Shown here in pieces: positions 43,559-59,369 of a stretch of 64,000 nt of DNA. Made by a program: the position numbers and the translations under genes. Source of the DNA: a virus. Taxonomy: Duplodnaviria; Heunggongvirae; Uroviricota; Caudoviricetes. The notes beneath the pieces were generated by a model. It was given only the letters and a program-made list of their open reading frames with translations, had not been told where the DNA came from and ran no database searches. Each line of letters opens with the position of its first letter. Position 1 is the stretch's first letter. Location of the stretch: IMG/VR virus record IMGVR_UViG_3300035660_001437, one strand, 5' to 3'.

Positions 43559-46500
43559 AAATGAAAAAACAATTAATGGCGTTTGTGTTGATGTGCTTTG
43601 TATTAATACCATCATGCATGGTTCTGTTACCGAAGGCATTTGCATACACGGACTATACGGATTTTGAAACTGGTTGGAACGGTTGGACTACTGACGGAAA
43701 TGTTTCTTCTTACGTAAGAGGAACAGTCTATGCACATAACGGAAGTTATTCAGTTTACACGGAGAATGAAAGTCTCACCGAATTTTACATTAACAACACG
43801 TTCACATGGTCTAATGAAACAACTTATCTTACTGTTTGGGCATTAACGGTTGATAATGTTGGCGAGTCAACCGTAAATTGTAAATTAGACTATGAAAACG
43901 GTACGCAAATAAAAGGCTGGTCTTTTCTAGCAAATTTGGAGTATTTAGTGTGGGTAGAGGGATACGCAAATTTAACGCAAGAAGTAGAATCTGAAGTCGG
44001 CGAGCTTGATGGAAAAGTAGTAATTCTTTATTTGGACACGGAAACTTATTATGTAGGGAACACAACTAATTATTATGGTCTTGGAGCAATCGACGACATT
44101 AACCTTACCGAAGAAGCTCCAAGCTTTCCAAGTGCAAGCGTTACCGTTGCTGCATCACCAGAAGGTGTGGGTTCAGTTTGGTTTACATTAAATTACGAGC
44201 CGCACCAAACCGTTTATTCAGAGAACTTAACGTTAGGATTCTATGAATTTGTTGTCCAAAATCTTACTGCTGGTAATTATAGCTTTTCTCATTGGACAGT
44301 GAACGGAACTTTAACTTATGAGAATACTGAGCTCGACATCACAATAGGGGGAAACACGAATATTACCATTGTTTACATTTATACTGCTGGAATTTCATTT
44401 GAATTTTCCAACATTGGTCACAGCACGTATTATGCAGGATGGCAAATCCAATTCTGGTGCACGGTAAAGTGCGAAACAAATGAGTTAATAGGCTACATTT
44501 TTGGGTGGAACGCAAGCGGAACTTGGTACGATTATGATTACAAAACTTTCACTCCGACTTATGAAAAGTACATAAACACTTTCGAGCTCGGAAGCCAATA
44601 CTTACCGTCAAGCTTTACGGAAGTAGTTTACGCATTTCGGGTTAAAGTCGATGGAAATGTTTGGGGATTCAGCGGTTATCAAACTCTTATCAATAAAGCG
44701 CCAGAAACAATAATTTCGGGAGATAATATAGGGCTGAACTGTCCTTGGCAAAGAAATTCATTTTCAAAATATGGAGATAATTATCAGTTCTTTTTCAACA
44801 GTACAGACAAAAAAGTCTATTACGCTGTTAAACCGTTTAACGAGACGGCTTGGGTAGTCGTGCCGAACGCTACTACGACTGCATGCTACTACAGCGCGAT
44901 TGATTGGGGCATTTGGTTCGACGGAAGCTTTGTTTACATAGCTTGGGTCGGAAGTGGCAAAGTAATTTACATGAAAAAGGGGTACATTGATGGTTATGCT
45001 CATAGATTAGCTTGGCATTGGGGCACGGAGACAGTAGCAACCATGGATTGGAGTTACATTGGTTATGGTTATACAGATGTATGCACGAAGTGGGTTAGTG
45101 GAAGCACATATTACTTTGTAAGCGTTAACTTCAAAGGAGTTACTTTCTTCTGGAAAAAAGCAACAGATACAACGTGGCTAAACCAATCAATTTTCGGCCT
45201 TAGTGCGGCTGCTACTCATGCAGAGATAGTGCCATATAGAGACGGCATAGTAGCATTCGCGGTTAAAGGTTGGTACCCTTGCTACGTTTACTATTGGGCA
45301 CTTGCAAATAATAACTTTACATATATGTTTGAACCCGTTCATGTGCCTAATGACTACACTGAGCCAATTGCTCATTCTCTAACTGCGACAGAAGACGGAA
45401 CAAAAGGTTACTTATTAATATCATGCGCTTATTCTTTTAATTATGGTTACGAAATTCAGCTTTTTTCCTTTGAAATAGGTTCTTCTGAATACAATGTAAC
45501 TATCCTCGCAAGAAATGGCGTTGAACAGTATGGCGGGGTTCAAATATTTATTGTGGGAAGTAGAGTAATACCGATGTGGTATGGCGGTTCGACTGGATAC
45601 CCGCCCTACGTTTCACATGTCGTCTTTCAAAACTATGACCTTGGTTTAACAGCGAGTTCACAATACATTTATGTAATAAGAGATTCGTCAATGATTAGTT
45701 CTACTTTCATGATTGGCTTTACGGATTACAAGTACATGCTTTCTTGGATGGCATCTGGCTCTAACGTGATAAAGTGCCAAGAAGCGGACTGGGGAGAACT
45801 TATGCCTTCAATAGACATAGGGAGTTTAGAGATATTAAACAGAAGTTGTCTCGACAGCATTTATGACACAACAAATGGAACGGGTTGGTTAATTGTCGAA
45901 AAGCAATACTACATTTTCAGGATGAACCTGACTGTTTATGGGTGTTCCTTGCATTATGCATCTTTTAAGTTTACGGATGTGGCTGGCAACGACGTAATCC
46001 CATATTACAATAACGTGACGTCTAAAGCAGGTCTTCTTTCAGACACTTCCTTTTCAGCCGTTAATAACCCAATTCTTGTTAAAACTGGCAGCTATTCATA
46101 TTCCATTATGCTCAGCGCTTGGCTGAAAAAGCCTTTAATTGATACGTGGTACGTTGACCTATATGGTTATGCAAACGATACTACTGGCGACATATCTACG
46201 GGTTGGGTTCTCGGTAGAATTGATTACTTCAACATTTACTCGCAAGGTGGTCTCGAGAAGATGACGGCAAGCGGAGATGCTGGAAGGCTTGACGGCGGTG
46301 ATTTCTTTAATCTTTACGCTTACAATAACAGCTTCGCAATGTCTGAAATTTATTGGCGTCATCTCGTCGACGTAAAGTTGTTGTTTTCGTTCCAATGGGA
46401 GCACGGGGCGCCACCTTCAGAATTTCCAACATTGTGGCTTGATTTAGGCTTCAATTATTTTGCGAGAGGCAATTGGTGTGATAGCCAGGAAATATATGTC

Positions 46501-47709
46501 AGGTTAGGATTAGATAGCTTTGCCTACGGCGCTGATTGGCAATATTCGAAGTGGCTTATTCAGATTAAAAGAGGCAGCACCACAATTTTTAGCGACTACA
46601 TTTACGGTTGGTTCGATAGCGAGGATAATACTTTCACAATTTGGCTCGACCTTTGGTTCAACAAAGCCAATGCTTCTTCGATATTTGGCATAAGAGCAAC
46701 GAGCTATTGGTACGCCGTTAAAAATAGCGCAGATTGGCTGCATAGGATTTTTACAGGAAATGATTGGGGTGTTTATTACGCGAATCAAAGTTCATACATT
46801 ATTTTTTCAGAATTACGGGATGAGAGCGAAAATAAGCTTTTCAGTTCAGAGATAGAAATGATAGAGTTATGGGCCAAGCTTTATCAATATAGTCAAAGTT
46901 ATAATTACTCCGGGAAAATAATTCGCATTCAACAATTTGACTATACTTTTAATGTCGAGATGCAAGGCATACCCACACCTTCTTTCGAGGCGCCAAGAAC
47001 GCCGGCCATGCCGATGGGCGGGTTTTTGGGAGTTCTGGCGTCTTGGTTATCAGCTCTTGTAAACGCACTTGCGCCGGCATTTGCATTCATGTGGTCAGGC
47101 GTCGTCTATGTGCTTGACGGCGTACTGCAAGCTCTCACCGGCCAGCCTGGTGTATTCACTAATTTCGTTTCTTTAATATCTGCGATAATAAGTAGCATAG
47201 TTTCGTTTTTCGGCATTCTTGCGAGCAATTTCGTAAACTTCGTGACCGTTGTGTACAACACCGTAACGTGGTTCTTCGGCAGCTTCTTCAGTTATATATG
47301 GGGAATCGTAGAATTCATATTTCTGACGCCGGCATTTAACATAATAACCGTCGTCGCGACAATTTTCGGCATCTCGATTGCGTGGCTCGCAGGGACTTCT
47401 TACACGAACGGCTTTGGTCAGACGTACGACTTCACGAACCTCTCAAATCTCCATTTTGCAGGGCTAAGCGGCGGCATAGTGATATTCTTCTTGATTTTCG
47501 TGGCAGGGTTTTTCCTTCAAATTCTCAAATGCATTTCTACGCTCAGCCTCGGGCCGATACTTGAGCCGATTGGCCTTTTCATGGGCGTTGTGAACTTCGT
47601 GATAAGAATAGTAGAAGTCATCTGGTATCTGATAAGAGGCGTAATACAACTACTTGTGCAAATCGCCCACGCGCTAAGGGACATCGCGCCTCGTCCGATG
47701 GGACTATAA
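43549..47709 (+). CDS. large secreted/surface glycoprotein candidate with C-terminal polytopic membrane domain
   Basis: 1386 aa; N-terminal signal peptide MKKQLMAFVLMCFVLIPSCMVLLPKAFA; W/Y/N/G/T-rich; dozens of N-x-S/T sequons (NGS, NES, NET, NLT, NVS...); last about 250 aa form at least 7 TM helices. Confidence 0.7.
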   Translation: MGVKMKKQLMAFVLMCFVLIPSCMVLLPKAFAYTDYTDFETGWNGWTTDGNVSSYVRGTVYAHNGSYSVYTENESLTEFYINNTFTWSNETTYLTVWALTVDNVGESTVNCKLDYENGTQIKGWSFLANLEYLVWVEGYANLTQEVESEVGELDGKVVILYLDTETYYVGNTTNYYGLGAIDDINLTEEAPSFPSASVTVAASPEGVGSVWFTLNYEPHQTVYSENLTLGFYEFVVQNLTAGNYSFSHWTVNGTLTYENTELDITIGGNTNITIVYIYTAGISFEFSNIGHSTYYAGWQIQFWCTVKCETNELIGYIFGWNASGTWYDYDYKTFTPTYEKYINTFELGSQYLPSSFTEVVYAFRVKVDGNVWGFSGYQTLINKAPETIISGDNIGLNCPWQRNSFSKYGDNYQFFFNSTDKKVYYAVKPFNETAWVVVPNATTTACYYSAIDWGIWFDGSFVYIAWVGSGKVIYMKKGYIDGYAHRLAWHWGTETVATMDWSYIGYGYTDVCTKWVSGSTYYFVSVNFKGVTFFWKKATDTTWLNQSIFGLSAAATHAEIVPYRDGIVAFAVKGWYPCYVYYWALANNNFTYMFEPVHVPNDYTEPIAHSLTATEDGTKGYLLISCAYSFNYGYEIQLFSFEIGSSEYNVTILARNGVEQYGGVQIFIVGSRVIPMWYGGSTGYPPYVSHVVFQNYDLGLTASSQYIYVIRDSSMISSTFMIGFTDYKYMLSWMASGSNVIKCQEADWGELMPSIDIGSLEILNRSCLDSIYDTTNGTGWLIVEKQYYIFRMNLTVYGCSLHYASFKFTDVAGNDVIPYYNNVTSKAGLLSDTSFSAVNNPILVKTGSYSYSIMLSAWLKKPLIDTWYVDLYGYANDTTGDISTGWVLGRIDYFNIYSQGGLEKMTASGDAGRLDGGDFFNLYAYNNSFAMSEIYWRHLVDVKLLFSFQWEHGAPPSEFPTLWLDLGFNYFARGNWCDSQEIYVRLGLDSFAYGADWQYSKWLIQIKRGSTTIFSDYIYGWFDSEDNTFTIWLDLWFNKANASSIFGIRATSYWYAVKNSADWLHRIFTGNDWGVYYANQSSYIIFSELRDESENKLFSSEIEMIELWAKLYQYSQSYNYSGKIIRIQQFDYTFNVEMQGIPTPSFEAPRTPAMPMGGFLGVLASWLSALVNALAPAFAFMWSGVVYVLDGVLQALTGQPGVFTNFVSLISAIISSIVSFFGILASNFVNFVTVVYNTVTWFFGSFFSYIWGIVEFIFLTPAFNIITVVATIFGISIAWLAGTSYTNGFGQTYDFTNLSNLHFAGLSGGIVIFFLIFVAGFFLQILKCISTLSLGPILEPIGLFMGVVNFVIRIVEVIWYLIRGVIQLLVQIAHALRDIAPRPMGL

Positions 47710-47734
47710 GTTTAACTGCAGGTGTTATAAATGG

Positions 47735-48238
47735 ATGAAATTACTTCGCAAAGGGGAGTGCTTTACCATAGACGATGACACAACATCTTTCTTCCTCATA
47801 TTTTTCGCGATTTGGGCCGTGATTTTAGTTGTTGCTTCGGCGTACTCCGGCGCGCACGAGCTTTCAAAGCCGCAAGCGGGTGTAATGCTGCTCCAGTCGC
47901 CAGATTTGAACCAGAAGCAAATACTGATAAATCCGATGTTGATAAGAGGGCAATTTTCAACAGGCTCAATTGATTGCGTGTTCTACATTTACAACGAAAA
48001 GACTTACAGCCAGAACGTAACGATTGGATGGTGGCTTGGATTTCAGATGGTAGAGGAGGCAAAATACGTTGACTTCTATTGCTCTGCCGGTAAGAATTTT
48101 ATGATTGCTAACAAAACGCTTTTGGAGTGCTACGTAAAGTTCTCAGTAGCGGCCAGCGCACCGCAAAACGTCAAAGACAAACTTGCAGATGGAAACCCTG
48201 GGATTTATTTAGTGGTAACCGCAAATGTGGAGGAGTAA
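47735..48238 (+). CDS. membrane-anchored hypothetical protein
   Basis: 167 aa with N-terminal TM helix. Confidence 0.45.
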   Translation: MKLLRKGECFTIDDDTTSFFLIFFAIWAVILVVASAYSGAHELSKPQAGVMLLQSPDLNQKQILINPMLIRGQFSTGSIDCVFYIYNEKTYSQNVTIGWWLGFQMVEEAKYVDFYCSAGKNFMIANKTLLECYVKFSVAASAPQNVKDKLADGNPGIYLVVTANVEE

Positions 48239-48500
48239 AATGACAACTGTTCAAACTGTTATTGTGATAATTAAATTCAAGAGCGAAGTCGACGTGTCGG
48301 CATTTAGAAGACCTGCTCCGCCGGGGTTATTCGGCAGCAGAAGACAGAGCATGGGCGTGAACATCATGGAAACTCAAACTATTCCGCTCGACAGGCCGAT
48401 TATTATAATACCGAACGGCGAGGCTGATAGCGTCGAAATAATACCGATAACAGACCAAACTTTGATTCACGGCAAAAATATAAAGAGGCTTTTGAAATGA
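48225..48500 (+). CDS. hypothetical protein
   Basis: 91-aa ORF overlapping neighbours by ATGA. Confidence 0.35.
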   Translation: MWRSKMTTVQTVIVIIKFKSEVDVSAFRRPAPPGLFGSRRQSMGVNIMETQTIPLDRPIIIIPNGEADSVEIIPITDQTLIHGKNIKRLLK

Positions 48501-49012
48501 GCGAAGAGGAAGAGCAATCAAAAGTTGTTAGGCGCGGCCCATTTTACGCTCCGAGACCGCTAACCGAAAAAGAGAAAAAAGAGAAAGAGTTAAAGAGGAA
48601 AATCAACAGAAAATTGCTTGATAAAATGTTTAAAGACGGCAGCTTCGACAGAGCGACTCAAATTATAGCTATGATGATTTCATACGTCAGCTTTCCGCTG
48701 GCAAAGTTTTACCTGTGGCGTTCGCAAATGTTCAACTTCATGTTGGTAGGAGCATCTGGATGTATTTTAGGTTGGCTGCTCTTCAATATCTTTAGGCCGT
48801 TACTATTCTTCGAGTTCCTGGCCTGGGTCGTGGCGACGCTCTGCGTGTTCATGTGGAACTATACCTGGAACAAGGTCTGGTCGCTGAACGCTTTTGCGCA
48901 GTTGAATTTCATGAAGAGAGCGCAGCTGCAGGAAATGAGAGAAAGAATAGACGAGATTTTGAGGAGTAAAAAACATGAAAATCTCAATAATAATCGCTCA
49001 TCATCCGAGTAG
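48497..49012 (+). CDS. membrane protein
   Basis: 171 aa; basic N-terminus plus 3 TM helices. Confidence 0.45.
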   Translation: MSEEEEQSKVVRRGPFYAPRPLTEKEKKEKELKRKINRKLLDKMFKDGSFDRATQIIAMMISYVSFPLAKFYLWRSQMFNFMLVGASGCILGWLLFNIFRPLLFFEFLAWVVATLCVFMWNYTWNKVWSLNAFAQLNFMKRAQLQEMRERIDEILRSKKHENLNNNRSSSE

Positions 49013-49733
49013 GAACAGCTCTCTTTTAGAGGAAATAAAGAAGCTTGAGAGCGAAAAAGTAGAAGTATTAACTTCTTCTAGCGGAAACAAGTCGAAATGC
49101 AGGAATGAACTTGCAAAAATTGCGAGCGGTGAAATTCTGGTGTTCTTTGACGATGATGTGATTCTTAGGCATAATACTATAGAAGAACTGCTGCTGCCTT
49201 TTGACAAGTTTGAAAATGTTGCTATAGTCGGCGGTATAAATGTGCCTATGTACAGCGCTGGTGATTGGAGAGAAACGATTTCAAGTTCTCTGCTTTCTTC
49301 ATCGCTATCTATGGCAAGGTCTGCTGCAAGATACACGTCGAAAGGCGATATCCGCGAAACCGACGAGTCTGAAATAATACTGTGTAATATGGCAATGCGA
49401 AGAGACGTTTTTCTAAAAGCAGGCGGGCTGCCAGAAAACATTATTCCGTGTGAGGAAAACGTTCTTATTAATCGAGTCGCGAAATTGGGATATAAAATAA
49501 TTTACAACCCATTTGCAGTAGTGTATCACGAGAGGCCGAAACTTTTCATGTCTTATTTTAAAAAAATGTTCGGGTACGGTAAGGGCAGGGGAATCATGAT
49601 GCGGAGAGGAGAGGGCGCGCCGAAAATGTTGTGGAGGCCGAATTTAAAGTGGGTTGTTTATCCGATTGCTTTCGCGGGGCACTACGTTTCTTACTTGAGC
49701 GGCGTGCTTTGGGGTTTGGTGAGAGGAAAATGA
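48975..49733 (+). CDS. family-2 glycosyltransferase
   Basis: MKISIIIAHH at N-terminus (GT-A fold start) and DxD (VFFDDDV). Confidence 0.55.
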   Translation: MKISIIIAHHPSRNSSLLEEIKKLESEKVEVLTSSSGNKSKCRNELAKIASGEILVFFDDDVILRHNTIEELLLPFDKFENVAIVGGINVPMYSAGDWRETISSSLLSSSLSMARSAARYTSKGDIRETDESEIILCNMAMRRDVFLKAGGLPENIIPCEENVLINRVAKLGYKIIYNPFAVVYHERPKLFMSYFKKMFGYGKGRGIMMRRGEGAPKMLWRPNLKWVVYPIAFAGHYVSYLSGVLWGLVRGK

Positions 49734-51178
49734 AGATTTTGTGGCTTTGCCCGCCAAGTAAAGTCGAGGGCGAATACCCACTTGTTGGGCAAAATCGCTG
49801 GTTCAAATACCTTCCTTTTAAAGCGAATTTTATTTATCCGATTATCGCTGCAGAAGGCGTCACGCTTATAAAGAACGCGGGTCACGAAATAGACTTTTTG
49901 GAAGCGCCTGCAGAGCAAAAGAGCATGGTAGATGTTCTCCAGCAAATATGGAAAAAAGGTTACGACCTCGTAATCATGGAGGGCAGGACTGCTATAATTA
50001 CGTGGATTTGGCAAGTCGCGAAAACAATAAAGAGCACCAGCATCAGAACAAAAGTGGCGCTGTACGGCGACCACGTGATAGTGAGGCCTCATGAAAGCTT
50101 GCAGAATGGAATAGACTACATTATTGACTGCGGCGACTACGATTATGGCGCTTTTAAACTCGTAGAAGAGCTCTCAAAGACCGGATACGCAAATCCTATA
50201 TTCAGCGAAAATATCATGAAAAACCTCGATGATTTGCCATTCGCGGACAGAGATTTGGTGCCGTGGCACAACTACTTCGAGTCGTGGCGTCACAGAGATA
50301 AATTTGGTTGGTATCAGAGCGGGCGGGGATGCTGGGCAAAATGTACGTTCTGCTCTTGGGTTTACACTTTTTACGGCCATACCATCAGGCTTTTCTCTCC
50401 GAAAAGAATCGCAGACGAAGTGCAGTACGCAACGGAAAAATGGGGTATTGAGGAATACCTCGATGACGCAGACACGTTCATTCCAAAACCGTGGGGCGTT
50501 CAATTTGCGAAAGAGCTCGAGGGCAGAGAGATTGAAATACTATGGAACGTGCAAACTCGCGCGGATACCGCGCTTACCGCCAATGAAAGTGATTGGAAGT
50601 TAATGCGAGACAGCGGGTTGAGAGTAGTAAAGCTCGGCGTCGACGGCGGTAACGAATACACGCTCAACAAAATACAAAAGGGGTACAGAATGGAAGACGC
50701 AGAGAATGCGGTAAAGTTGCTGAAGAAAGCAGGCATAGAAGTCCACATAAACATGATTATTGGCTGGCCTTGGGAAACGAAAAAGGAAGCTTACGGCGTG
50801 ATAAAGTGGGTCAAGCGGTTGAAACCGAATCAGGCGCAGTTTTCTCTTATAGAACCGTTCATCGGTACGCCGATTTTCCAAGAAGCAATAGATAATAAAT
50901 GGTTCGTGAACGCACCGCAAGATTGGGACAAATACGACATGAAGACGCCTATTTTGCAAGGAGAAATGAGCGCCAAGGAAATAGCAAAATTGCACAGGGA
51001 CGCGTGGAAGATGTTTTACTTGAACCCGAGGTTCATAATATATCAGCTTGAAAAATCAACTAAATTAGCTTTCGAAGAAAGAAATCTTGACAGCTTCAGA
51101 CATATTTGGAGAGGGTACAAAGGAGTTACAGAGGGGCACATGAAGGCGGTTAGCACAGGGGATACGTCTAATGAATAA
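49730..51178 (+). CDS. B12-binding radical SAM enzyme
   Basis: Likely starts at MKILWLCPP (ATGA overlap with upstream stop; the track ORF begins at 49631 with an in-frame extension). N-terminal B12-binding-like Rossmann region, then radical-SAM CxxxCxxC (GCWAKCTFCSW). Confidence 0.7.
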   Translation: MKILWLCPPSKVEGEYPLVGQNRWFKYLPFKANFIYPIIAAEGVTLIKNAGHEIDFLEAPAEQKSMVDVLQQIWKKGYDLVIMEGRTAIITWIWQVAKTIKSTSIRTKVALYGDHVIVRPHESLQNGIDYIIDCGDYDYGAFKLVEELSKTGYANPIFSENIMKNLDDLPFADRDLVPWHNYFESWRHRDKFGWYQSGRGCWAKCTFCSWVYTFYGHTIRLFSPKRIADEVQYATEKWGIEEYLDDADTFIPKPWGVQFAKELEGREIEILWNVQTRADTALTANESDWKLMRDSGLRVVKLGVDGGNEYTLNKIQKGYRMEDAENAVKLLKKAGIEVHINMIIGWPWETKKEAYGVIKWVKRLKPNQAQFSLIEPFIGTPIFQEAIDNKWFVNAPQDWDKYDMKTPILQGEMSAKEIAKLHRDAWKMFYLNPRFIIYQLEKSTKLAFEERNLDSFRHIWRGYKGVTEGHMKAVSTGDTSNE

Positions 51179-51827
51179 ACTGTCAAATCTTAAAATACCA
51201 AAAAATGTCGCAATTCTTGCGGTAGTGATTGGATTCGTATTTGTGTCCGTTTATTTCGTCTTGCTTTTCATACCGACAGAAGCAATAATATCTGTTGCCA
51301 GCATAACTAGTATCGGCGGCTCTCACCCGCTTGGAATTTGCGCTTTTATAGGCATGAACGTTTACGCGGCATATAGGTTCGCCAGGCTGGCGAAACTAAA
51401 TCCGAATTCCTCTATTGGTGAGAAGATATTGGCGAAAGTTATTGCAGTAGGAGCGGGAATGTCAGTGGCCCACTCTTTTTTTTACATGTGCGACATGTGT
51501 TCAATACCGACTTTCATAGTTAGAGAAGGAATTGAAGTCCTGCCAAGAATAAGCTATTTGGGCTGGATATGGAATCATGATTTGGGATTTATGAGGTCGA
51601 TGGGATTCCAACTAGTCGTGCTGTACGCTTACAGGAAGTTCATAAATTGGAAGTCGCTCATTGCGATAATCCCTCTAATGTTAACCCTCGCCTTTTACAC
51701 GTACTTCCTCTTTAGCTTCACCGGAATGCACCCACTCGTAGGTGAAACTAGAGCTCTGTTTTTCCTTTTCAGCTACATCCCAACCTGGATTATCTTCTAT
51801 TGGGCATTTGCCAGGTTCTTGAGGTGA
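51171..51827 (+). CDS. polytopic membrane protein
   Basis: 218 aa, about 6 TM helices. Confidence 0.45.
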   Translation: MNKLSNLKIPKNVAILAVVIGFVFVSVYFVLLFIPTEAIISVASITSIGGSHPLGICAFIGMNVYAAYRFARLAKLNPNSSIGEKILAKVIAVGAGMSVAHSFFYMCDMCSIPTFIVREGIEVLPRISYLGWIWNHDLGFMRSMGFQLVVLYAYRKFINWKSLIAIIPLMLTLAFYTYFLFSFTGMHPLVGETRALFFLFSYIPTWIIFYWAFARFLR

Positions 51828-51834
51828 TGAGACG

Positions 51835-52929
51835 TTGAACATTATAGAGCGGATTTTTTGGACAATTCCAAACGTAAACCTATTTGCCGGGAGTCTTAAC
51901 ATTGTTGGTGCCGTTTGGTTCTTTTGCTTGTTTGCTTATGCCTACAGGAGATTCAGACTCGGCTTTCCGCAAACTACTGCAATTTCTCTTGCTTTCATCA
52001 TATCTTTGTTTACGCACTACCTCTTAGATGAATCTTCCGTCATTATTGTTTGGATAATGTACCATTTTGAGTATAATCTTTTCTTGAGCAAAATTCCAAT
52101 ATATATCAGCATGATTATAGCGTTTTATATCATTGCGAGATTTGCGAGGCCGCATCTCAAGGTGGATAGAAAAACAGTTGCTATGTTCGTGACGGTGTGC
52201 CTGTTCGATATGTTTGTATTTTACGTGCTTGTCTCAAATTATGGAACAGCGGGATACAGGAGTTATGACTCTCCAGACAGAGAAATAGCTTTTTGGACTT
52301 TCTATCCTCTTGCAAAAGTTATGTGGTTCGGCTTCTTTTTTACTATGTGGAAAAAGAGAGAATTGTTTGGTCTTGATTTCTTGCAAAAGTACGGAATTGG
52401 TGAGGCGTACATGCTTTGCGCTCTAAAACGATTGTTGAGAAAAATCAAAAAAGAGTTTAACATACATCAGATTTCAGAGATTCTAACAAATGAGTCGTCT
52501 GTAGACTTTCCCGATAGGGACTGGGAAATTGGCGAAAATTCAGAACTTTTATTTGTTTTCAGACCGACTGGCGATGCGATGAACAAGGTGAAAAACAGCG
52601 GCGCAAAATATGTGCTGCTTGCAGCGACAAACAAAAATCATTTCTTGCGCATGGTCAAAAGGCTGCATAGTTTGCTGGGTACAAAAGGAGAAGTTTATGC
52701 GACAAAAAAAGAGCTGAAAGAACTGGCAAAAAAGCACGGGTTTGAACCAATAAAAGACGGGTATTACGACTCGCCGCCTTGGGTCGACCACTCTACACGC
52801 GTTATCGTACCTGCAAAGAAACTTAGGATTGACTTGAATGACGTAAAGTCTTTATTATTTTTTGAGCTCTTTAACTCCAGGTTTACGTCTCACCATCCAT
52901 ACGTTCTGGCCAGGAGGAATGCGAGATGA
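51835..52929 (+). CDS. membrane protein with C-terminal soluble domain
   Basis: 364 aa; N-terminal about 200 aa polytopic, C-terminal soluble. Confidence 0.5.
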   Translation: MNIIERIFWTIPNVNLFAGSLNIVGAVWFFCLFAYAYRRFRLGFPQTTAISLAFIISLFTHYLLDESSVIIVWIMYHFEYNLFLSKIPIYISMIIAFYIIARFARPHLKVDRKTVAMFVTVCLFDMFVFYVLVSNYGTAGYRSYDSPDREIAFWTFYPLAKVMWFGFFFTMWKKRELFGLDFLQKYGIGEAYMLCALKRLLRKIKKEFNIHQISEILTNESSVDFPDRDWEIGENSELLFVFRPTGDAMNKVKNSGAKYVLLAATNKNHFLRMVKRLHSLLGTKGEVYATKKELKELAKKHGFEPIKDGYYDSPPWVDHSTRVIVPAKKLRIDLNDVKSLLFFELFNSRFTSHHPYVLARRNAR

Positions 52930-53675
52930 CTGACTTGCCGAAGATAATGCTGTCGAAAGCTCTGTCCAATCTGATGCTTTTAGGAGGAAAAATAAAGTGG
53001 GCATGCGAGAGAAATTGCGCAACGCTACCTGATAGCAAAATAATTTATTTTTATCCAGGAGATAGAGTAAACGTTTACGGCTATTTGACAACTATATGGA
53101 AATATAACGTCTACGGAGAAATAGAAAAAAATGGGCTGGTAGTTGACGCTGGGGCAAGCATAGGTGTTTACAGCTTGAAAGTTGCAGACATCGCATCCAG
53201 AGTTATCGCTGTAGAGCCGGTGCCGAGAATATTCACGATGCTCGAGAAAAATATAGCGGCAAACATGGTGACAAACGTTATTCCGGTAAACCTGGCTTTA
53301 AGCAATTATGATGGCTCTATAGAGCTGCATTTAACGTCGCAGCTTTTCGGAGAGGGACATGAAATTTCTCCGCTGCACGTTCCGAAAAGTAAAATAGTAG
53401 TTCCGTGCGCTAAATTGGACACGCTCATGAAAAATCTCAAGGTAGACGAAATCACAAATCTCAAAATCGACATAGAGGGGCACGAGCTTTATCTACTTGA
53501 CGGTTCGAAAAGTCTATTATCGCGAGGTTCAATAAAGAATATGTCTATTGCTGTTTATCATTTCAAGGACGAAGAAATGCAGGTTCGAAAGTTTTTGGAG
53601 ATTTACGGCTACAGCACCACTTCCAAGTTCTTCTTTGACGGCGACATAATACTCTATGCGAGGCTAAGAAGATGA
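52926..53675 (+). CDS. FkbM-family SAM-dependent methyltransferase
   Basis: VVDAGASIGVYSLKVA SAM-binding motif typical of FkbM family; 249 aa. Confidence 0.55.
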   Translation: MTDLPKIMLSKALSNLMLLGGKIKWACERNCATLPDSKIIYFYPGDRVNVYGYLTTIWKYNVYGEIEKNGLVVDAGASIGVYSLKVADIASRVIAVEPVPRIFTMLEKNIAANMVTNVIPVNLALSNYDGSIELHLTSQLFGEGHEISPLHVPKSKIVVPCAKLDTLMKNLKVDEITNLKIDIEGHELYLLDGSKSLLSRGSIKNMSIAVYHFKDEEMQVRKFLEIYGYSTTSKFFFDGDIILYARLRR

Positions 53676-54331
53676 GCGTCGGAATAGTTATACCCACTTT
53701 AAACGAAGAAAAGAATTTAGAGAAACTTCTTCCTGCGCTTAGAGAGTATTTTAACGGCGCGAAAATAATCATCGTGGACGACCAGAGTAAAGATGCAACG
53801 GTTGACGTTGCGAGGAGTTACGATTGCATCGTTCTCAAAGCGTACCAAAGAAGAGGTCTTGGCAACAGCTATAAAGAAGGATTATTGACAGCATTGACTT
53901 TGGATTGCGAAATAATAGTGCAATTAGACGCAGACCATCCCGCGCGTCCGGCTTTTGAAATGGTTAACACACTTTTGGCAAAAGAAGACGACATGATAAT
54001 TGGAATTGAAACCGGTAGCAGGACGTTGCACAGCAAAGTGGCGAGTTGGATTGCAAGAAATTATCTCGGCCTTGATTTCAAACAACCGACTTGTGGGTAC
54101 ATGGTGTTCAGCGCAGGTTTCTTAAGCAGACTCGACGTTTCAACTCTTAAATCAAGAGGAGATGCGTTCCATTTGGAGCTTCTCTACAAAGCAAGCAAAA
54201 TGTCGTCGAAAATAGAAGAAGTCAGATTCCAAGGCGTCGCGCATGAAAAAGCTTCTTACAATAGAGTTTTGCGCTGGCTTTGGGAGCTGTTTTTAATGCG
54301 CTGGAGGCAGAGAAAAGCTTATAAACCTTAA
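53672..54331 (+). CDS. family-2 glycosyltransferase (dolichyl-phosphate sugar synthase-like)
   Basis: MSVGIVIPTLNEEKNL...KIIIVDDQSKD pattern of Dpm1/GtrB-like GT2. Confidence 0.6.
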   Translation: MSVGIVIPTLNEEKNLEKLLPALREYFNGAKIIIVDDQSKDATVDVARSYDCIVLKAYQRRGLGNSYKEGLLTALTLDCEIIVQLDADHPARPAFEMVNTLLAKEDDMIIGIETGSRTLHSKVASWIARNYLGLDFKQPTCGYMVFSAGFLSRLDVSTLKSRGDAFHLELLYKASKMSSKIEEVRFQGVAHEKASYNRVLRWLWELFLMRWRQRKAYKP

Positions 54332-54588
54332 AATATCATATATAGGCTGAGGTATGAAAAGTGAGTGAAGCGGTGTACGGATTTGTGGCGCTCGTCGTTC
54401 TAATACTCGGAGTTTGGAAGGCTATTGAGCTCCTAATAAAGATAGTTCGATACACTATTCGAGTAGTCAGAAGAGAGAAAATCTCTGAAGAAGACGAGGC
54501 GCTGAGAAAGAAAATAGAGGAAAAGCTCAAATTTTTAAAGAAGAAAAAGCGTTCTTAGCTTCGCAAAGAGAGCGAGAAACATTTATAT

Positions 54589-54858
54589 ATGCGTGCGCAT
54601 ACGTTAAACCGAGGACTTATTATGGTATGGCGCTGCAATAAATGCGGGTTAGAGCTAAAGCCTGAAGATAAGATGCCAACAAAGATGCTTGAGAGGTTGC
54701 TGAAAGACTCGCGCTGCCCTAAAGACATCAAGCGTGCTTTCAAATACGGCATGGTTTGTCCGGAGTGCGGGAGAAAGCTGAGGATTATTGGCATTTACCT
54801 GTGCCCGAACTGTGAGGCAATATGTTTAGAAGGAGCGGAGCATATTGAAGCCTTTTGA
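54589..54858 (+). CDS. zinc-ribbon protein
   Basis: CNKCG...CPECG...CPNCE. Confidence 0.4.
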   Translation: MRAHTLNRGLIMVWRCNKCGLELKPEDKMPTKMLERLLKDSRCPKDIKRAFKYGMVCPECGRKLRIIGIYLCPNCEAICLEGAEHIEAF

Positions 54859-55663
54859 AGAGCTTTCAATAAGCGGAAAATGGGCCATAGAACATCCTGG
54901 GTATTCGAGAGAATACCGCAGAACGCAGAAGTTTAGAGAACGGCAAAGAAAATATCACAAGTGGTATTTTAGACATCTCGAATCCGCAAGGAAGCGCGGC
55001 GAAAAGTGGCGAAGGGAGCATCCCGAGTACAATAAAGAATATTTCGCAAGGTCGGAAGTTAAAGATAAGATGAGAGAATATGTGAGAAAATGGCAGAAGG
55101 ATTTGAAAGAAGAAGTCTTTTCTCATTACTCAAGCGGCGCGCCGGAATGTGCCTGCTGCGGAGAAATGAGAATTGAATTCCTGACCATTGACCACATTGG
55201 AGGCGGAGGGAATAGGCATAGAAAAGAAATAGGTGGCAGCTCGACGATTTATTTATGGCTCAAGCGAAACAATTATCCGCCAGGATTTAGAGTTCTCTGT
55301 TTTAACTGCAACTTCCTAGTATTCAAACAGAAAGTGAGATGCGCAAAATATCCTCGCCATCAAGGGCGGAGGATTAATCTTAGGCTGGAGGTCTTGTATC
55401 ATTACTCTAACGGTGCATCTGTCTGTAAGTGCTGCGGCGAGGGCAATATTGACGTCTTGACTATTCACCATGTTGGAGGAGGCGGGCTAAAACATCTTGA
55501 AGAAATAGGCGGAGATATTTGCGGCTGGCTCAAACGCAACAATTACCCGCCGGGCTTCCAGGTGCTGTGCTGGAACTGCAATGAGGCAAAAGCCCATTAC
55601 GGCTTCTGCCCGCACGAAATTGAGAGAGCAAGGGAAGAGTTTAAGAAAATTTGTATCGTCTAG
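54845..55663 (+). CDS. tandem HNH-motif endonuclease-like protein
   Basis: Two copies of CxCCGE-x5-(F/V)LTI(D/H)H(I/V)GGGG...YPPGF(R/Q)VLC(F/W)NCN. Confidence 0.55.
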   Translation: MKPFEELSISGKWAIEHPGYSREYRRTQKFRERQRKYHKWYFRHLESARKRGEKWRREHPEYNKEYFARSEVKDKMREYVRKWQKDLKEEVFSHYSSGAPECACCGEMRIEFLTIDHIGGGGNRHRKEIGGSSTIYLWLKRNNYPPGFRVLCFNCNFLVFKQKVRCAKYPRHQGRRINLRLEVLYHYSNGASVCKCCGEGNIDVLTIHHVGGGGLKHLEEIGGDICGWLKRNNYPPGFQVLCWNCNEAKAHYGFCPHEIERAREEFKKICIV

Positions 55664-55949: not shown

Positions 55950-56153
55950 ATGTTGGAAGTGGGTAGCTCCAAAGAGGCGATAAAGTTGCCAAAGACCAAG
56001 CACGTCAAACTAGGAGACGGGCTCGACAAACTTTTCAAGGAGAGAGCGACGTACAGCTCGTCGGCACACAAAGCAAAAGGCTCAACCTGGCTAAAAGAAC
56101 CCCCGAAATACGGCACACAAAAAGCCGGCGGTAAAAGACGGAAGAGGAGGTGA
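55950..56153 (+). CDS. small basic protein
   Basis: 67 aa ending GGKRRKRR. Confidence 0.35.
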   Translation: MLEVGSSKEAIKLPKTKHVKLGDGLDKLFKERATYSSSAHKAKGSTWLKEPPKYGTQKAGGKRRKRR

Positions 56154-56157
56154 TTGC

Positions 56158-56367
56158 GTGGTGTACAGTTGGAGAGGTAAAAAGCCACTTCCGATGGGCG
56201 GGTTCGTCACGGAGGAAATCAGCGGCGGCAAAGTTGGCAAAAAATCTTCTAAGAAACGTGCAAAGAAAGTGTGGACAGGCCCAATCAAATCGCCTGCCAA
56301 ATCGTCTTTCCACAAATCCATCGAAAAGGGCAAGAGAGCGAAGAAGAACTGGACTGGAGGGTTCTAG
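56158..56367 (+). CDS. small basic protein with repeated KRAKK(V/N)WTG motif
   Basis: 69 aa; KRAKKVWTGP and KRAKKNWTGGF. Confidence 0.4.
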   Translation: MVYSWRGKKPLPMGGFVTEEISGGKVGKKSSKKRAKKVWTGPIKSPAKSSFHKSIEKGKRAKKNWTGGF

Positions 56368-56736
56368 ATGGCAGTGGGCTTTAGAAAAAGAGTGAGAGGC
56401 ACTGCCAGGCAGATAGGAAAAGCTTTTCCTGTTTTTACAAAGAGGAAACTGCCCACGAAATTCGGAGGCAAAAGAAGATTGAAGCCGAAAGACACGATTG
56501 TTCTGCAATTTGAATACCCGGACGAGGCTGAAGCTTTCAGAGATGCTTACTATGCAGTAGGCGCGGTGTCTGACTTCCCAGCGCCCGAAGATGAAAAGGT
56601 GGTTAAAAACACAGTCATTCTCAGGTTCGACAAAGAAATCATAGAAGACAATCCAGACCTTGCAGACGACACGCTTGAATACCTCAAAAGAGCAAGTTTC
56701 TTTACGGTCAAGCCGAAAAAAGTGTGGACGGCCTAG
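56368..56736 (+). CDS. basic-leader paralog family member A
   Basis: N-terminus MAVGFRKRVRGTARQIGKAFPVFTKRKLP; SD GGAGGG upstream; C-terminus ends KPKKVWTA. Confidence 0.55.
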   Translation: MAVGFRKRVRGTARQIGKAFPVFTKRKLPTKFGGKRRLKPKDTIVLQFEYPDEAEAFRDAYYAVGAVSDFPAPEDEKVVKNTVILRFDKEIIEDNPDLADDTLEYLKRASFFTVKPKKVWTA

Positions 56737-57057
56737 GTGGTTGACATGGCAATCAAAGCAAAAAACAAGAGCTGCATAGCCGGCGCGCTGAGAGGCAAAG
56801 TCGGCTGGCCACTTGTCAGCAAGCGAAGGAGAGGCGGAAAAAAGCCGAAATATTGGATTCAAGAAGCAATCGGTGTCAAGGGCTCGCTGAGAGAAGAAGT
56901 CATGCGGAGGAAGGGAAGAGCCGGTTTTGACTCGCGCGGCAGGATAAAAGCGAGTGTCATAGAAGAAATCATACGCAAAGACGGCTTCAAAAAGCAGGCA
57001 GTCCTGGCAAGAACGCTCCGCGGGCTGAAAAAGCGAGGTAAAAGGAGGGAGAAGTAA
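56737..57057 (+). CDS. small basic protein
   Basis: 106 aa, K/R-rich. Confidence 0.4.
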   Translation: MVDMAIKAKNKSCIAGALRGKVGWPLVSKRRRGGKKPKYWIQEAIGVKGSLREEVMRRKGRAGFDSRGRIKASVIEEIIRKDGFKKQAVLARTLRGLKKRGKRREK

Positions 57058-57059
57058 AA

Positions 57060-57302
57060 ATGCCGAATCCCGTAAGAGCAATGTTTTGGGGACTGCGGAA
57101 ACAGGGGTACTCAGCTGCAGAAGCAGAAAAGCGAACTAGAGAATATTTTTCGGCGAAAAAAGCACGCAAAAGTGATAAGAAAATGCCGCAAAGGAGAATG
57201 GGAAAACCGAGGACAGATGCAGAAAGGAGAGCTAGGCACATGGCTATATATGGTACTGAAAAGTTACCGCCTAGAGGAACAGGGCTGCGAAGGAGAGGCT
57301 GA
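57060..57302 (+). CDS. small basic protein (MPN...)
   Basis: 80 aa; SD AGGAGGG upstream. Confidence 0.4.
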   Translation: MPNPVRAMFWGLRKQGYSAAEAEKRTREYFSAKKARKSDKKMPQRRMGKPRTDAERRARHMAIYGTEKLPPRGTGLRRRG

Positions 57303-57593
57303 AAGTGCCGAAAACAAACATAAAAGCAAAACATATCTTCATAAGAAACAAAAAGACAGGCACGTCAAAATGGGTGACGAAAGCGCAGTGGAACAAAATC
57401 AAAAAGACTCCCCCGAAAAAGAGGCCATGGAGAAGAGTTCGAGCGTTTTGAGGCGAAAGTAAATGCCAAAAAGAAATAAAAGCAGAAAATACGTGCACGT
57501 CGTAACTAAAGAAACTCCAGTTCCAACGCATCTTTTCCTGACCAAAAAAGAATACAATAAGCTCTCCAGAAAAGCACCAAAAAGATTCCAAAA

Positions 57594-57842
57594 GTGGAGA
57601 TACTAATGACAATCGAGTTTTACAAGAGAAAAAAGCAAGCGAAGAACTGGGCTAAGCAAGTGAAAAGATTTGCAAGAAGAGACATAAAAGTCGCCAGAGT
57701 CAGAGTTGCAAATGTAGGTTTTTTGAATAACGCCGGCGGAAGAAAGATAGGCGGAAGTGGCAAGTTCAAACCAGGAGAAGTGGGCTACGTTCTAGCTTTC
57801 AGAGGCATGAGCGAGGCAGGATTGAGGAGGGCGCGAAAGTAA
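57594..57842 (+). CDS. small basic protein
   Basis: 82 aa. Confidence 0.4.
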   Translation: MEILMTIEFYKRKKQAKNWAKQVKRFARRDIKVARVRVANVGFLNNAGGRKIGGSGKFKPGEVGYVLAFRGMSEAGLRRARK

Positions 57843-59355: not shown

Positions 59356-59369
59356 GAGGGATGCTGTAA

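Follow-up and report, generated by a model that had tools for sequence, protein, structure and literature searches.

We analysed the locus at 48975-54331 of a 64 kb stretch of DNA (64,000 nucleotides, hereafter the window) and somewhat favour the view that it is a conserved glycan-tailoring cassette of a virus-like element, presumably co-transcribed with the gene of a giant membrane-anchored surface protein. From the families encoded, the operon would most likely build an unusual modified sugar on membrane-lipid-linked glycans. The element itself appears to be a virus-like mobile element of archaeal type, uncultivated and some 55-80 kb long, possibly with an archaeal host.

The Cassette Lies in a Conserved Operon-Like Array

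Six closely spaced ORFs were found on the + strand between 48975 and 54331, matching the content given in the first-pass annotation (a GT2, a B12-type radical SAM enzyme, two membrane proteins, an FkbM methyltransferase and a DPM1-like GT2), and every one of its domain calls was upheld by family searches (Table 1). Neighbouring cassette genes either share 4-38 nt or leave a gap of at most 30 nt, and the genes overlap or abut throughout an array running from 43549 to 54858. The unit extends beyond the six genes, since it also includes those of a half-size GtrA-like protein and of a 65-aa membrane protein. A check of synteny in related contigs recovered cassette orthologues with their gene order retained across independent metagenome contigs; hence, the cassette consists of real genes and not of chance ORFs.

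Table 1. Features of the cassette and of the upstream part of the array in the window.
Feature	Coordinates	Strand	Assignment and description
82-aa two-helix hydrophobic protein	42251-42499	+	operon head; no family match
325-aa polytopic membrane protein	42581-43558	+	operon head; orthologues in L002, L096, L098
Giant sequon-rich protein, 1386 aa	43549-47709	+	N-terminal signal/anchor, ~1150-aa ectodomain, C-terminal multi-TM region
Half-size GtrA-like membrane protein, 171 aa	48497-49012	+	PF04138; 2 TM helices; outside the range first annotated
GT2a, GT-A glycosyltransferase	48975-49733	+	Pfam GT2 families
B12-binding-type radical SAM, 482 aa	49730-51178	+	PF04055, PF02310, HpnJ-like HMM match
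TM218, polytopic membrane protein	51171-51827	+	several hydrophobic helices; no family match
TM364	51835-52929	+	~5-TM N-terminal domain (aa 1-177), soluble C-terminal domain (190-364)
FkbM-family SAM-dependent methyltransferase	52926-53675	+	PF05050, TIGR01444
GT2b, DPM1/GtrB/ArnC-type polyprenyl-phosphate sugar synthase catalytic domain	53672-54331	+	PF00535
65-aa single-pass membrane protein	54361-54558	+	one N-terminal hydrophobic helix, K/E-rich tail

The locus had been placed immediately downstream of the giant protein gene. It does lie downstream of it, but three small genes (47735-49012) separate the giant protein from GT2a. What links the two is their place in a single operon-like array, which relatives have kept: the giant protein is found upstream of the module in L002, L096, L098, L014 and L099, and was absent within the 10 kb upstream in the two remoter loci with that much upstream sequence (L094 and L095). 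The two proteins at the head of the operon, whose genes are called in L001, had no match in Pfam/PHROG-type family searches. In L002, L096 and L098, the order is 325-aa protein, giant protein, proteins of ~160 and ~86 aa, GtrA-like protein, GT2a and radical SAM, with GT2b and the 65-aa protein closing the cassette. Between these flanks, the genes vary and comprise class I methyltransferases, FkbM, a second B12 radical SAM, a GFO/IDH/MocA oxidoreductase and LAGLIDADG inserts. L005, where only part of the cassette is on the contig, carries an aldo-keto reductase.

GT2a and the Radical SAM Enzyme Are Paired in Cellular Glycan Clusters

GT2a matches Glyco_tranf_2_3 (1.7e-11) and Glycos_transf_2 (3.5e-11) in Pfam, carries the motifs DDD (aa 59-61), CEEN (159-162) and YGKGRG (201-206), and ends in a hydrophobic helix. 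Its nearest NCBIfam families, MftF, EpsD and AglG, all scored far under cutoff, and the top PDB match of its family profile was 6YV7, with cellulose and hyaluronan synthases weaker. GT2a lies directly upstream of the radical SAM gene in every element locus having upstream sequence. Full-length relatives of the radical SAM enzyme, at 30-34% identity, are present in over 586 genomes of bacteria and archaea. Of 79 cellular loci, 32 have a GT2a-like homologue directly upstream, and a further 16 have one at another place in the locus. Judged from this distribution, the pair appears old and widespread; it forms a widespread family without any characterised member.

The neighbours of the cellular relatives include Wzx, GT1, GT4, WbaP-like, WecA/AglH-like, WecG, RmlD-type and STT3/AglB proteins, with STT3/AglB on the same strand in seven DPANN archaeal loci. 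Because these loci are glycan-assembly clusters, seven of them from DPANN archaea with AglB/STT3, they support a role in the tailoring of lipid-linked glycans (in archaea, N-glycans). A glycan role of the radical SAM enzyme, as opposed to one in pigment or hopanoid synthesis, was thus borne out by the placing of its cellular relatives in polysaccharide and N-glycosylation clusters. There are parallels with archaeal Agl N-glycosylation (the Haloferax Dol-P-hexose synthases AglJ/AglD, AglG and AglB): AglG and AglJ are weak matches of GT2a and GT2b, in DPANN archaea AglB and AglH-like genes precede the relatives of the pair, and the giant protein of the element is sequon-rich. However, AglB is missing from the element. 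No Agl pathway containing a B12 radical SAM was described in the literature searched, and we know of none.

The Radical SAM Enzyme Resembles Sugar-Acting Non-Methylases

The start of the radical SAM gene was assigned to ATG 49730, rather than GTG 49631. The protein has a Rossmann-like N-terminal domain with YGDHV and GDYD motifs, and the radical SAM motif GCWAKCTFCSW (aa 200-210, nt 50327-50359) includes the CxxxCxxC signature (aa 201-208, nt 50330-50353), of which C201, C205 and C208 are invariant across 33 homologues. In Pfam, it matches PF04055 (4e-16, 60 bits) and, under the cutoff of 32.1, the B12-binding PF02310 (24 bits). An HMM classification, which had been put forward as a check, reached no curated family: the best curated model was HpnJ, aligned over the full length at 180.7 bits, or 31% of the NCBIfam cutoff score of 577.6, followed by BchE (102.7 bits), while the NCBIfam AprD4 model gave 41.7 bits (cutoff 500). 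The resemblance to HpnJ is only partly specific, since the generic second B12 radical SAM of L002 also reaches 152 bits. By sequence profile, AprD4 is the nearest solved structure (9e-26), and AprD4 was also the top Foldseek match (TM 0.72/0.76) of an AF2 model (pLDDT 93.6), with TsrM, OxsB, MgmA, CysS and TokK next. The nearest characterised relatives, HpnJ and AprD4, act on sugars.

The first-pass annotation held that such enzymes next to glycosyltransferases typically C-methylate or otherwise tailor sugars. The nearest characterised relatives are instead non-methylases (HpnJ and BchE by HMM, AprD4 by sequence and structure), and so C-methylation is not specifically supported. We consider it possible but rather unlikely that the enzyme is a class B C-methyltransferase making a C-methyl (branched) sugar, like GenK, GenD1 and MoeK5. 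The cobalamin-type architecture, the structural matches to the methylases TsrM, MgmA, CysS and TokK, the richness of the cassette in methylation enzymes and a published similarity network that groups HpnJ with the methylases Fom3 and MoeK5 would fit that chemistry. Besides the non-methylase top matches, the B12-domain score under the Pfam cutoff argues against it, and relatives encode, in addition, a second B12 radical SAM of more canonical type that could be the methylase. In addition, an oxidoreductase follows the radical SAM gene directly in L096 and one gene on in L005, which resembles the AprD4/AprD3 dehydratase-reductase logic, in which AprD3 is the reductase partner. AprD4 (the apramycin radical SAM 1,2-diol dehydratase, PDB 6FD2) shares the three-part architecture and has a carbohydrate substrate, but it is only 15-16% identical to the window enzyme and the window has no AprD3-type reductase, oxidoreductases near the radical SAM being carried by L096 and L005.

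The HpnJ match also bears on a reading that we regard as improbable, namely that the cassette remodels membrane-lipid head groups: GT2a would glycosylate archaeol, GDGT or another lipid, the radical SAM enzyme would contract the hexose to a cyclitol, much as in the formation of calditol or of the BHT cyclitol ether, and the methyltransferases would decorate the product, so that the host membrane or a virion envelope, rather than protein glycans, would be changed. HpnJ is a sugar ring-contraction enzyme, proposed to work on lipid-bound hexoses after the GT2 HpnI, and ring contraction of a lipid-bound hexose has likewise been proposed for the archaeal calditol synthase Cds. As in the HpnI/HpnJ system, the cassette pairs a GT2 gene with a B12-type radical SAM that would act on a lipid-bound sugar installed by that GT2, and both GT2a and the tailoring enzymes are membrane-associated. 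However, the HpnJ score is far under its cutoff, GT2a had no match to the NCBIfam HpnI model, the cassette has no HpnK deacetylase, and no hopanoid or tetraether lipid genes lie nearby. The cellular relatives, moreover, occur in polyprenyl-linked glycan clusters with initiating phosphoglycosyltransferases, Wzx and AglB, and not in hopanoid or other lipid biosynthesis clusters.

TM364 Belongs to a Small Membrane Family Tied to Methyltransferases

The two polytopic membrane proteins of the first-pass annotation are indeed membrane proteins with several hydrophobic helices, but they are not anonymous transporters, as the TM364 family is fused or adjacent to SAM methyltransferases. Neither TM218 nor TM364 matched Pfam, NCBIfam or PHROGs. 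The N-terminal domain of TM364 has conserved residues (N22, D65-E66, K86, R149 and Y157-P158), and its AF2 model was poor (pLDDT 57). The family has 34 representatives only, among 1.84 billion; all 11 element loci have a member, and the 79 cellular loci have none. Seven of the 34 carry a fused methyltransferase domain of the class I or FkbM type, and in 8 of 10 element loci the TM364-family member abuts a methyltransferase gene. By sequence comparison, TM364 founds a tiny element-specific membrane family tied to methyltransferases, and we propose that it is the membrane module of the methyltransferase(s). TM218, with an orthologue in L096 only, might be related to the TM364 family as a very remote paralogue; the hhalign match between them (E 0.08) was not significant.

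The start of the FkbM gene overlaps the TM364 stop by 4 nt. Its product scores above cutoff against both PF05050 (2e-17, 64 bits) and TIGR01444 (87.8 bits, cutoff 37.7), carries the motif DAGASIG at aa 74-80, and has orthologues in L094, L096, L098 and L099.

GT2b and the GtrA-Like Protein Resemble a Split Dolichol-Phosphate Sugar Synthase

GT2b matches PF00535 (5.7e-15), has VDD (35-37) and DAD (86-88) motifs and no transmembrane segment of its own. As a single sequence, it matches the Pyrococcus synthase PfDPMS (5MLZ) at 3e-7; its family profile reaches 2.5e-30 over positions 1-213, covering the DPMS catalytic domain from end to end with the DAD motif included, and has ArnC and GtrB as its next matches, in agreement with the annotation of GT2b as DPM1-like. 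For remoter relatives from L008 and L011, two IMG/VR loci, the best scores were those against PpgS, AglJ, PgfS and ArnC. The GtrA-like protein, with FNFMLVGASG and WNYTWN motifs, stays under the PF04138 cutoff in the window (18.8 bits, cutoff 26.1), while four of four orthologues match that family, the L096 copy above cutoff (38.1 bits). Its gene is kept directly upstream of GT2a in L002, L096, L098 and L014, and we propose that the protein is the membrane partner of GT2b. A GtrA/DPMS-type TM domain is thus encoded in the same operon as GT2b but, unlike in DPMS, the catalytic part and the membrane part are encoded by two genes ~4.7 kb apart, and the GtrA-like protein has two of the usual four TM helices. 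The 65-aa protein, whose orthologues directly follow GT2b in L002, L096 and L098, may be a membrane tether for GT2b.

The Giant Protein Is a Candidate Acceptor

The giant protein contains 31 N-X-S/T sequons, where shuffled sequences have 12.7 +/- 3.2 (z = 5.8), and no other protein of the window is as dense in sequons. Most of its orthologues are raised too, with z-scores of 5.0, 2.5, 2.5, 2.0 and 1.2, the last being the weak value of L098. We infer that it is the prime candidate for the glycan acceptor. Since no oligosaccharyltransferase and no recognisable GT-C transferase are encoded in the window, delivery to the giant protein would depend on host or other factors.

Another reading, compatible with a glycan-tailoring cassette, is that it alters the S-layer, N-glycans or surface polysaccharide of the host, for instance by attaching a methylated or otherwise modified sugar that a lipid-phosphate donor provides, with the giant protein not a specific target. 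We regard such host-surface conversion as unlikely. As in O-antigen glucosylation by phage gtrABC, a mobile element encodes both a GtrA-like protein and a GtrB/DPM1-like lipid-phosphate sugar synthase that would act on surface glycans. FkbM relatives include RfbT of V. cholerae, a methyltransferase of serotype conversion, and the family member P0156 weakly matches PF05575. The tailoring genes also differ between otherwise syntenic elements, as an arms-race trait would, and because the element has no oligosaccharyltransferase, a glycan change would reach every host glycoprotein sharing the lipid-linked precursor. Against this, no GtrC-like or GT-C-like transferase was identified, and the cassette has radical SAM, GT2 and methyltransferase genes beyond those of gtrABC. 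It lies in a structural (late-type) operon by the giant protein, whereas lysogenic-conversion genes usually lie beside integration or immunity genes, and the replication genes of the element are archaeal or eukaryote-like. If host-surface conversion were nevertheless true, it would block the adsorption of competing elements or the re-adsorption of progeny.

Nature of the Element

The viral nature of the element is suggested only by its replication genes and by a basic 106-aa protein that matches a PHROG and, weakly, fusellovirus VP2. Pfam and PHROGs detected no capsid, portal or terminase hallmarks in the window, the lineage was not found in the IMG/VR scan or INPHARED, and one relative (L014) is binned in a bacterial MAG. 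These points would fit a plasmid, another non-viral element or a misassembled cellular island with the cassette as an ordinary exopolysaccharide/N-glycan cargo cluster, which we nevertheless hold to be very improbable. Genes for tRNA, rRNA and ribosomal proteins are absent from the 64 kb window, and its replication module, with PolB, TopoIB, RFC-like, ThyX and Dam, is of the kind typically carried by large dsDNA viruses and elements like them. Close relatives are all on contigs of at most 80 kb, two independent assemblies being ~79 kb. In the radical SAM tree, which gave no host signal, the element enzymes form their own clade apart from all cellular ones, and the TM364 family is restricted to such contigs.

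Proposed Pathway and Implications

In the pathway that we propose for the glycan-tailoring cassette, the glycosyltransferase GT2a would add a sugar, on the cytoplasmic side of the membrane, to an acceptor linked to polyprenyl (dolichyl) phosphate, as suggested by the cellular gene contexts. Its gene partner, the radical SAM enzyme, would then carry out radical chemistry on the lipid-linked sugar, with C-methylation, HpnJ-like ring contraction and AprD4-like dehydration as candidates. FkbM, or in relatives class I enzymes or the second B12 radical SAM, would modify the sugar further, and the TM364-family module, fused or adjacent to methyltransferases, may hold these at the membrane. GT2b, homologous to DPMS, could form a split dolichol-phosphate sugar synthase with the half-size GtrA-like protein, and perhaps the 65-aa protein, supplying a lipid-phosphate sugar donor for outer-face decoration. 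Finally, a host flippase and AglB, or another transferase, would pass the modified glycan on to glycoproteins of the surface, among which the sequon-rich giant protein is the prime candidate target. As the middle of the cassette varies among relatives, this suggests diversifying selection on the structure of the glycan.

Gene layout of the cassette

Every domain that the first-pass annotation had named at this locus was recovered by HMM searches, which confirms the observation, and the cassette genes are conserved as proteins on independent contigs (table below). In the ORF listing of the window, they belong to an uninterrupted plus-strand array organized as an operon, with overlaps of 4-38 nt or gaps of at most 30 nt between adjacent genes throughout 43549-54858. 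A scan for sigma-70 promoters and intrinsic terminators gave counts equal to the shuffled expectation. The FkbM methyltransferase scores 87.8 bits against TIGR01444 (cutoff 37.7) and 64.3 bits against PF05050 (cutoff 22.7), and its SAM-binding motif I is DAGASIG (aa 74-80). Two HNH endonuclease genes also lie on the plus strand (54845-55663 and 59656-60303; phrog_2255, 2.5e-14 and 7e-14, respectively), the first of which contains an internally duplicated Cys-rich unit.

Genes of the glycan cassette and recognizable genes elsewhere in the window
Feature	Coordinates	Strand	Remarks
GT2a	48975-49733	+	GT2 domain by HMM
Radical SAM	49730 (ATG)-51178	+	PF04055 core; start as chosen by public gene callers
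Membrane protein TM218	51171-51827	+	no family match
Membrane protein TM364	51835-52929	+	no family match
FkbM methyltransferase	52926-53675	+	above curated cutoffs
GT2b	53672-54331	+	second GT2 by HMM
Topoisomerase IB, eukaryote-type, complete with three domains	8243-9751	-	Topoisom_I_N 5e-43, core 1e-60, C-terminal domain 3e-15
PolX thumb	11103-11633	-	
SPFH protein	13799-15154	-	
Dam methylase	15720-16523	-	
PolB, family B DNA polymerase	18621-20975	-	
DUF1643	22031-22561	-	
RFC-like AAA protein	24718-25662	-	
ThyX	28448-29089	-	
NADAR-domain protein	36546-37007	-	

The radical SAM protein and its predicted chemistry

The radical SAM core scores 60 bits against PF04055 (cutoff 29.5). The CxxxCxxC motif, CWAKCTFC (aa 201-208, within the GCWAKCTFCSW quoted in the first-pass annotation, aa 200-210), fits the radical SAM superfamily, and its three cysteines are invariant across 33 homologues. 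The B12-binding domain PF02310 reaches 24 bits on the window protein, under the 32.1 cutoff, and a precomputed match to it is present in many family members. The AlphaFold (AF2) model (pLDDT 93.6) superposes best on AprD4 (TM 0.72/0.76), then on TsrM, OxsB, MgmA, CysS and TokK; the superposition on the Cbl enzymes TsrM, OxsB and TokK is full-length, with AprD4 still the best match. AprD4 (6FD2) is also the best solved relative for a profile of 33 family members (9e-26). The protein is a candidate for a B12-binding architecture of the class B type, with putative use of cobalamin.

The best NCBIfam model is HpnJ (TIGR03471), which aligns to residues 33-442 (model positions 30-445 of 472) at 180.7 bits against an equivalog cutoff of 577.6, followed by BchE (TIGR02026, 102.7 bits against 481), a ladderane-type lipid radical SAM, HpnR (hopanoid methylase, TIGR04367, 78.6 bits against 650), ArsL and others; the AprD4 diol dehydratase model (NF033070) gives 41.7 bits against 500. 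The resemblance to HpnJ is only partly specific, because a second, generic B12 radical SAM of the relative locus L002 scores 152 bits against the same model. No cassette gene matches a model of HpnI, which together with HpnK and others would mark a hopanoid neighbourhood. HpnJ is itself a proposed non-methylase that contracts the glucosamine ring of the product of HpnI, a GT2, and an analogous ring contraction has been proposed for the archaeal calditol synthase Cds. The HMM classification suggested at first pass thus places the radical SAM protein in no curated family. Its nearest characterised relatives, as judged from sequence and model, are enzymes of radical chemistry on sugars rather than methylases. 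The C-methylation named at first pass is possible but doubtful, and ring contraction and dehydration are each about as likely.

Cellular relatives lie in glycan-assembly clusters

Close relatives of the radical SAM protein (38-66% identity) number about 70, all encoded on metagenome contigs no longer than 80 kb. When one genome per species was scanned with a profile, more than 586 cellular relatives emerged. The top 80 show 29-39% identity along their whole length and represent both bacteria and archaea, among them Desulfobacterota, CPR, Omnitrophota, DPANN, Bathyarchaeia and Altiarchaeota. The pairing with a GT2 is conserved: a GT2a-like gene lies directly upstream of the radical SAM gene on the same strand in 32 of the 79 cellular loci and elsewhere in the locus in 16 more. 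These cellular GT2a partners carry an additional C-terminal TM domain. Also encoded repeatedly nearby are Wzx-type flippases, GT1, WecG/TagA and RmlD-type enzymes, initiating transferases of the WbaP-like and WecA/AglH-like kinds, class I methyltransferases and membrane proteins of the LPG_synthase_TM type. In DPANN archaea, STT3/AglB is encoded 6-8.5 kb upstream on the same strand at seven loci and an AglH-like GT4 upstream on the same strand at nine, while Desulfobacterota show the order WbaP-like, radical SAM, WecG.

Judged by gene content, this neighbourhood points to the assembly of polyprenyl-linked glycans and, for archaea, to N-glycosylation, but not to hopanoid or bacteriochlorophyll synthesis. 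Glycan-assembly genes surround the radical SAM gene in the window and in the 79 cellular loci, and the glycan role proposed at first pass therefore withstands the refutation that had been set for it. Our literature searches found nothing directly relevant to the GT2a-radical SAM pair or to the element lineage, and no characterised member of the GT2-paired B12-type radical SAM family. In a neighbour-joining tree, the element-borne radical SAMs form one clade that is sister to all cellular ones; the tree therefore gives no host signal.

The two glycosyltransferases and a GtrA-like protein

The family profile of GT2b matches the catalytic domain of Pyrococcus dolichol-phosphate mannose synthase (DPMS, 5MLZ) end to end (2.5e-30, positions 1-213 against 23-245), and thereafter ArnC and GtrB; its DxD motif is DAD (aa 86-88), in keeping with a GT-A catalytic domain of the DPM1/GtrB/ArnC type. 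The full-length match bears out the earlier DPM1-like call, and GT2b is thus a predicted polyprenyl-phosphate glycosyltransferase of this type, which would take its sugar from an NDP-sugar donor and pass it to dolichyl or undecaprenyl phosphate. Distant GT2b relatives from IMG/VR loci have their highest scores against PpgS, AglJ, PgfS and ArnC.

GT2b has no TM segment, and two candidate membrane partners are conserved in synteny with it. One is a 65-aa single-pass protein, always encoded directly after GT2b in the loci compared. The other is a 171-aa GtrA-like protein, which we call half-GtrA, encoded just upstream of GT2a and outside the region annotated at first pass (48975-54331). Half-GtrA scores 18.8 bits against PF04138, under the 26.1 cutoff, and has only two TM helices instead of the four of GtrA. 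All four of its orthologues examined match PF04138, that of L096, a syntenic relative, at 38.1 bits and so above the cutoff. As the orthologues match and yet the protein has two TM helices, half-GtrA is a half-size homologue of the GtrA/DPMS TM domain, and GT2b together with it may form a split Dol-P-sugar synthase.

The GT2a family profile matches 6YV7, a mannosyltransferase from the membrane of Pyrobaculum whose minimal fold is cellulose-synthase-like, and more weakly cellulose and hyaluronan synthases; the closest curated families, MftF, EpsD and AglG, are each far under cutoff. Given the GtrB and GtrA matches, a rival explanation is a Gtr-like conversion of the host surface. However, the phage gtrABC seroconversion system includes a GtrC-type polytopic glycosyltransferase, of which no counterpart was found here: TM218 and TM364 have no family match, and a fold search was uninformative.

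A membrane-protein family linked to methyltransferases

A homologue search with TM364 alone returned only TM364 itself; a family profile was seeded from related loci. An exhaustive search with this HMM retrieved only 34 members among 1.84 billion representatives. The shared domain, the N-terminal 177 residues, occurs at each of the 11 element loci examined, frequently twice, and was absent from the 79 cellular loci by HMM. Seven of the 34 members continue at the C-terminus into a SAM methyltransferase domain (class I in five according to Pfam and in one according to motif I, FkbM in the last), a family member adjoins a methyltransferase gene in 8 of 10 related loci, and in the window TM364 overlaps the FkbM start by 4 nt. 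Hence, the family is most readily understood as the membrane part of methyltransferases bound to the membrane, with a predicted cytoplasmic C-terminus, which would imply a membrane-embedded, lipid-linked substrate. A rival explanation is that the cassette remodels membrane-lipid head-groups; against it stand the glycan-assembly neighbours of the cellular radical SAM genes.

The C-terminal domain of TM364, common only to the family members P0154 and P0159, has no methyltransferase motif, and its reading as a degenerate methyltransferase was not established (a 24-residue hhalign match, E 0.11). A paralogy of TM218 with the TM364 family was likewise not established (hhalign E 0.08), and the proposal that the family derives from the C-terminal TM domain of cellular GT2a proteins, now encoded separately, was rejected, as no HMM match was found in the 79 cellular loci. 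For TM364, the predicted structure was of too low quality to be used.

Conserved architecture and the giant protein

The 1386-aa giant protein contains 31 N-X-S/T sequons against 12.7 +/- 3.2 in shuffles, the highest density in the window. It was thus correctly described as sequon-rich and upstream of the cassette, but it is not immediately adjacent, since three small genes separate it from GT2a. Among the giant orthologues, including that of the window, the sequon enrichment z is 5.8, 5.0, 2.5, 2.5, 2.0 and 1.2, and a DUF2341 protein beside the giant in the distant locus L099 reaches 7.3. A large upstream protein is present in seven of the element loci.

Synteny in related contigs, raised at first pass as a check, is conserved: the order [325-aa TM][giant][~160][~86][half-GtrA][GT2a][rSAM]...[GT2b][65 aa] is found in the window, L002, L096 and L098. 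The interior of the cassette varies: of such genes the window has FkbM alone, L002 has class I methyltransferases, the second B12 radical SAM and three LAGLIDADG genes, L096 has methyltransferases and a GFO/IDH/MocA oxidoreductase, and L098 has methyltransferases. The distant loci L094, L095, L097, L099, L005 and L014 retain GT2a, the radical SAM and the TM364 family with different accessories, such as an aldo-keto reductase in L005.

The LAGLIDADG homing-endonuclease genes of L002, a 79-kb relative, are free-standing inside the glycan module (7051-7899, 11420-12295 and 16203-16679) and absent from the window. In L094 (4564-6339) and L095 (5425-7227), GT2a is directly preceded by a further radical SAM, about 600 aa long and of the PA0069/Rv2578c type, so that some cassettes have three radical SAM enzymes. 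L014 (GenBank JBGPQK010000041.1, 27.8 kb) was binned as an Anaerolineae MAG and has homologues of the giant protein, half-GtrA, the GT2s, the TM family and, at 39% identity, the radical SAM. The binning is almost certainly an error, with L014 belonging to the element lineage.

A virus-like element

Genes of the window run on the minus strand to about 41.8 kb and on the plus strand beyond. The switch point of coding strand and GC skew is a divergent intergenic region with a perfect 14-bp-stem hairpin (GCATCACTGTTTAA...TTAAACAGTGATG, 41862-41894), which may be a regulatory or origin-associated element. To our knowledge, long-form topoisomerase IB is, among prokaryotes, characteristic of Thaumarchaeota, so the enzyme encoded here may be a clue to the host. 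Scans of the window for tRNAs and Rfam families gave no match. Within 56000-61000, the plus strand is strongly purine-rich (AT skew up to 0.39) and encodes many small K/R-rich ORFs; a 348-aa antisense ORF (56035-57081) is probably spurious.

No capsid hallmark was found in the window, and the giant protein, the 325-aa protein, TM218, TM364 and others had no match in PHROGs. The only virus-like signals are two small plus-strand genes. The 106-aa basic protein (56737-57057) matches phrog_15706 (7e-9) and, under cutoff, Fusello_VP2 (9e-4). The 82-aa protein (42251-42499), first in the structural/glycan operon and conserved in relatives, has two long hydrophobic helices and no HMM match; it resembles the major capsid proteins of spindle-shaped viruses in size and composition. 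Nothing similar to the element was found in INPHARED, and the cassette module had no DNA match in deposited phage and archaeal virus genomes, among which the radical SAM protein found only a Streptomyces phage (24%). PolB is only 23% identical to that of haloarchaeal tailed viruses. A single-sequence scan of IMG/VR gave no matches, and a profile scan only six distant loci (25-32% identity). One relative was assembled twice independently, at 78,982 and 79,145 bp. From gene content and contig evidence, we therefore call the element virus-like and mobile, with a replication gene set of archaeal or eukaryote-like character; it is putatively viral, and archaea are its candidate hosts. A rival explanation, that the cassette is non-viral cargo, would agree with the lack of a capsid hallmark, whereas the 106-aa protein points the other way.

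Proposed pathway and significance

The best-supported explanation is that the cassette tailors a sugar on a lipid-linked precursor, probably at the cytoplasmic face of the membrane. GT2a would install a sugar on this precursor, the radical SAM enzyme would alter it, and membrane-anchored methyltransferases would decorate the altered sugar, while the split Dol-P-sugar synthase would give a donor for decoration at the outer face. The products would end in glycoconjugates of the surface, among which N-glycans on the giant protein, the co-expressed and presumed acceptor, are the most plausible.

A wider and more speculative proposal, which we consider unlikely, is that the GT2a-radical SAM pair is an uncharacterised pan-prokaryotic route to a rearranged sugar on dolichol- or undecaprenol-linked precursors, captured by one lineage of virus-like elements of large size. 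The sugar would be ring-contracted (carbocyclic) or C-branched/deoxygenated and would enter N-glycans in archaea; in the elements, the pair would be coupled to a private membrane-anchored methyltransferase family and the split synthase, and the cassette would have diversified. Each element would then have its own glycan signature on the giant adhesin and/or the host surface.

Archaeal viruses commonly carry glycosyltransferases, and phages use gtr cassettes. We know of no previous description of a cassette that combines radical SAMs, a split Dol-P-sugar synthase and element-specific membrane-anchored methyltransferases. Set beside known systems, the cassette adds a new form to the glycan modification that mobile elements encode, and its core is a widespread, uncharacterised GT2/B12-radical-SAM pair. 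Hundreds of glycan clusters in bacteria and archaea, AglB-containing N-glycosylation clusters of DPANN among them, have a member of this B12-type radical SAM family beside a GT2; with its closest relatives linked to ring contraction and diol dehydration, the family is therefore a defined target in the search for a new glycan modification. In the elements, the cassette is tied to a sequon-rich giant surface protein and diversified between relatives, which would point to mechanisms of host range or exclusion that act through glycans in archaeal-type elements known only from uncultivated sources.
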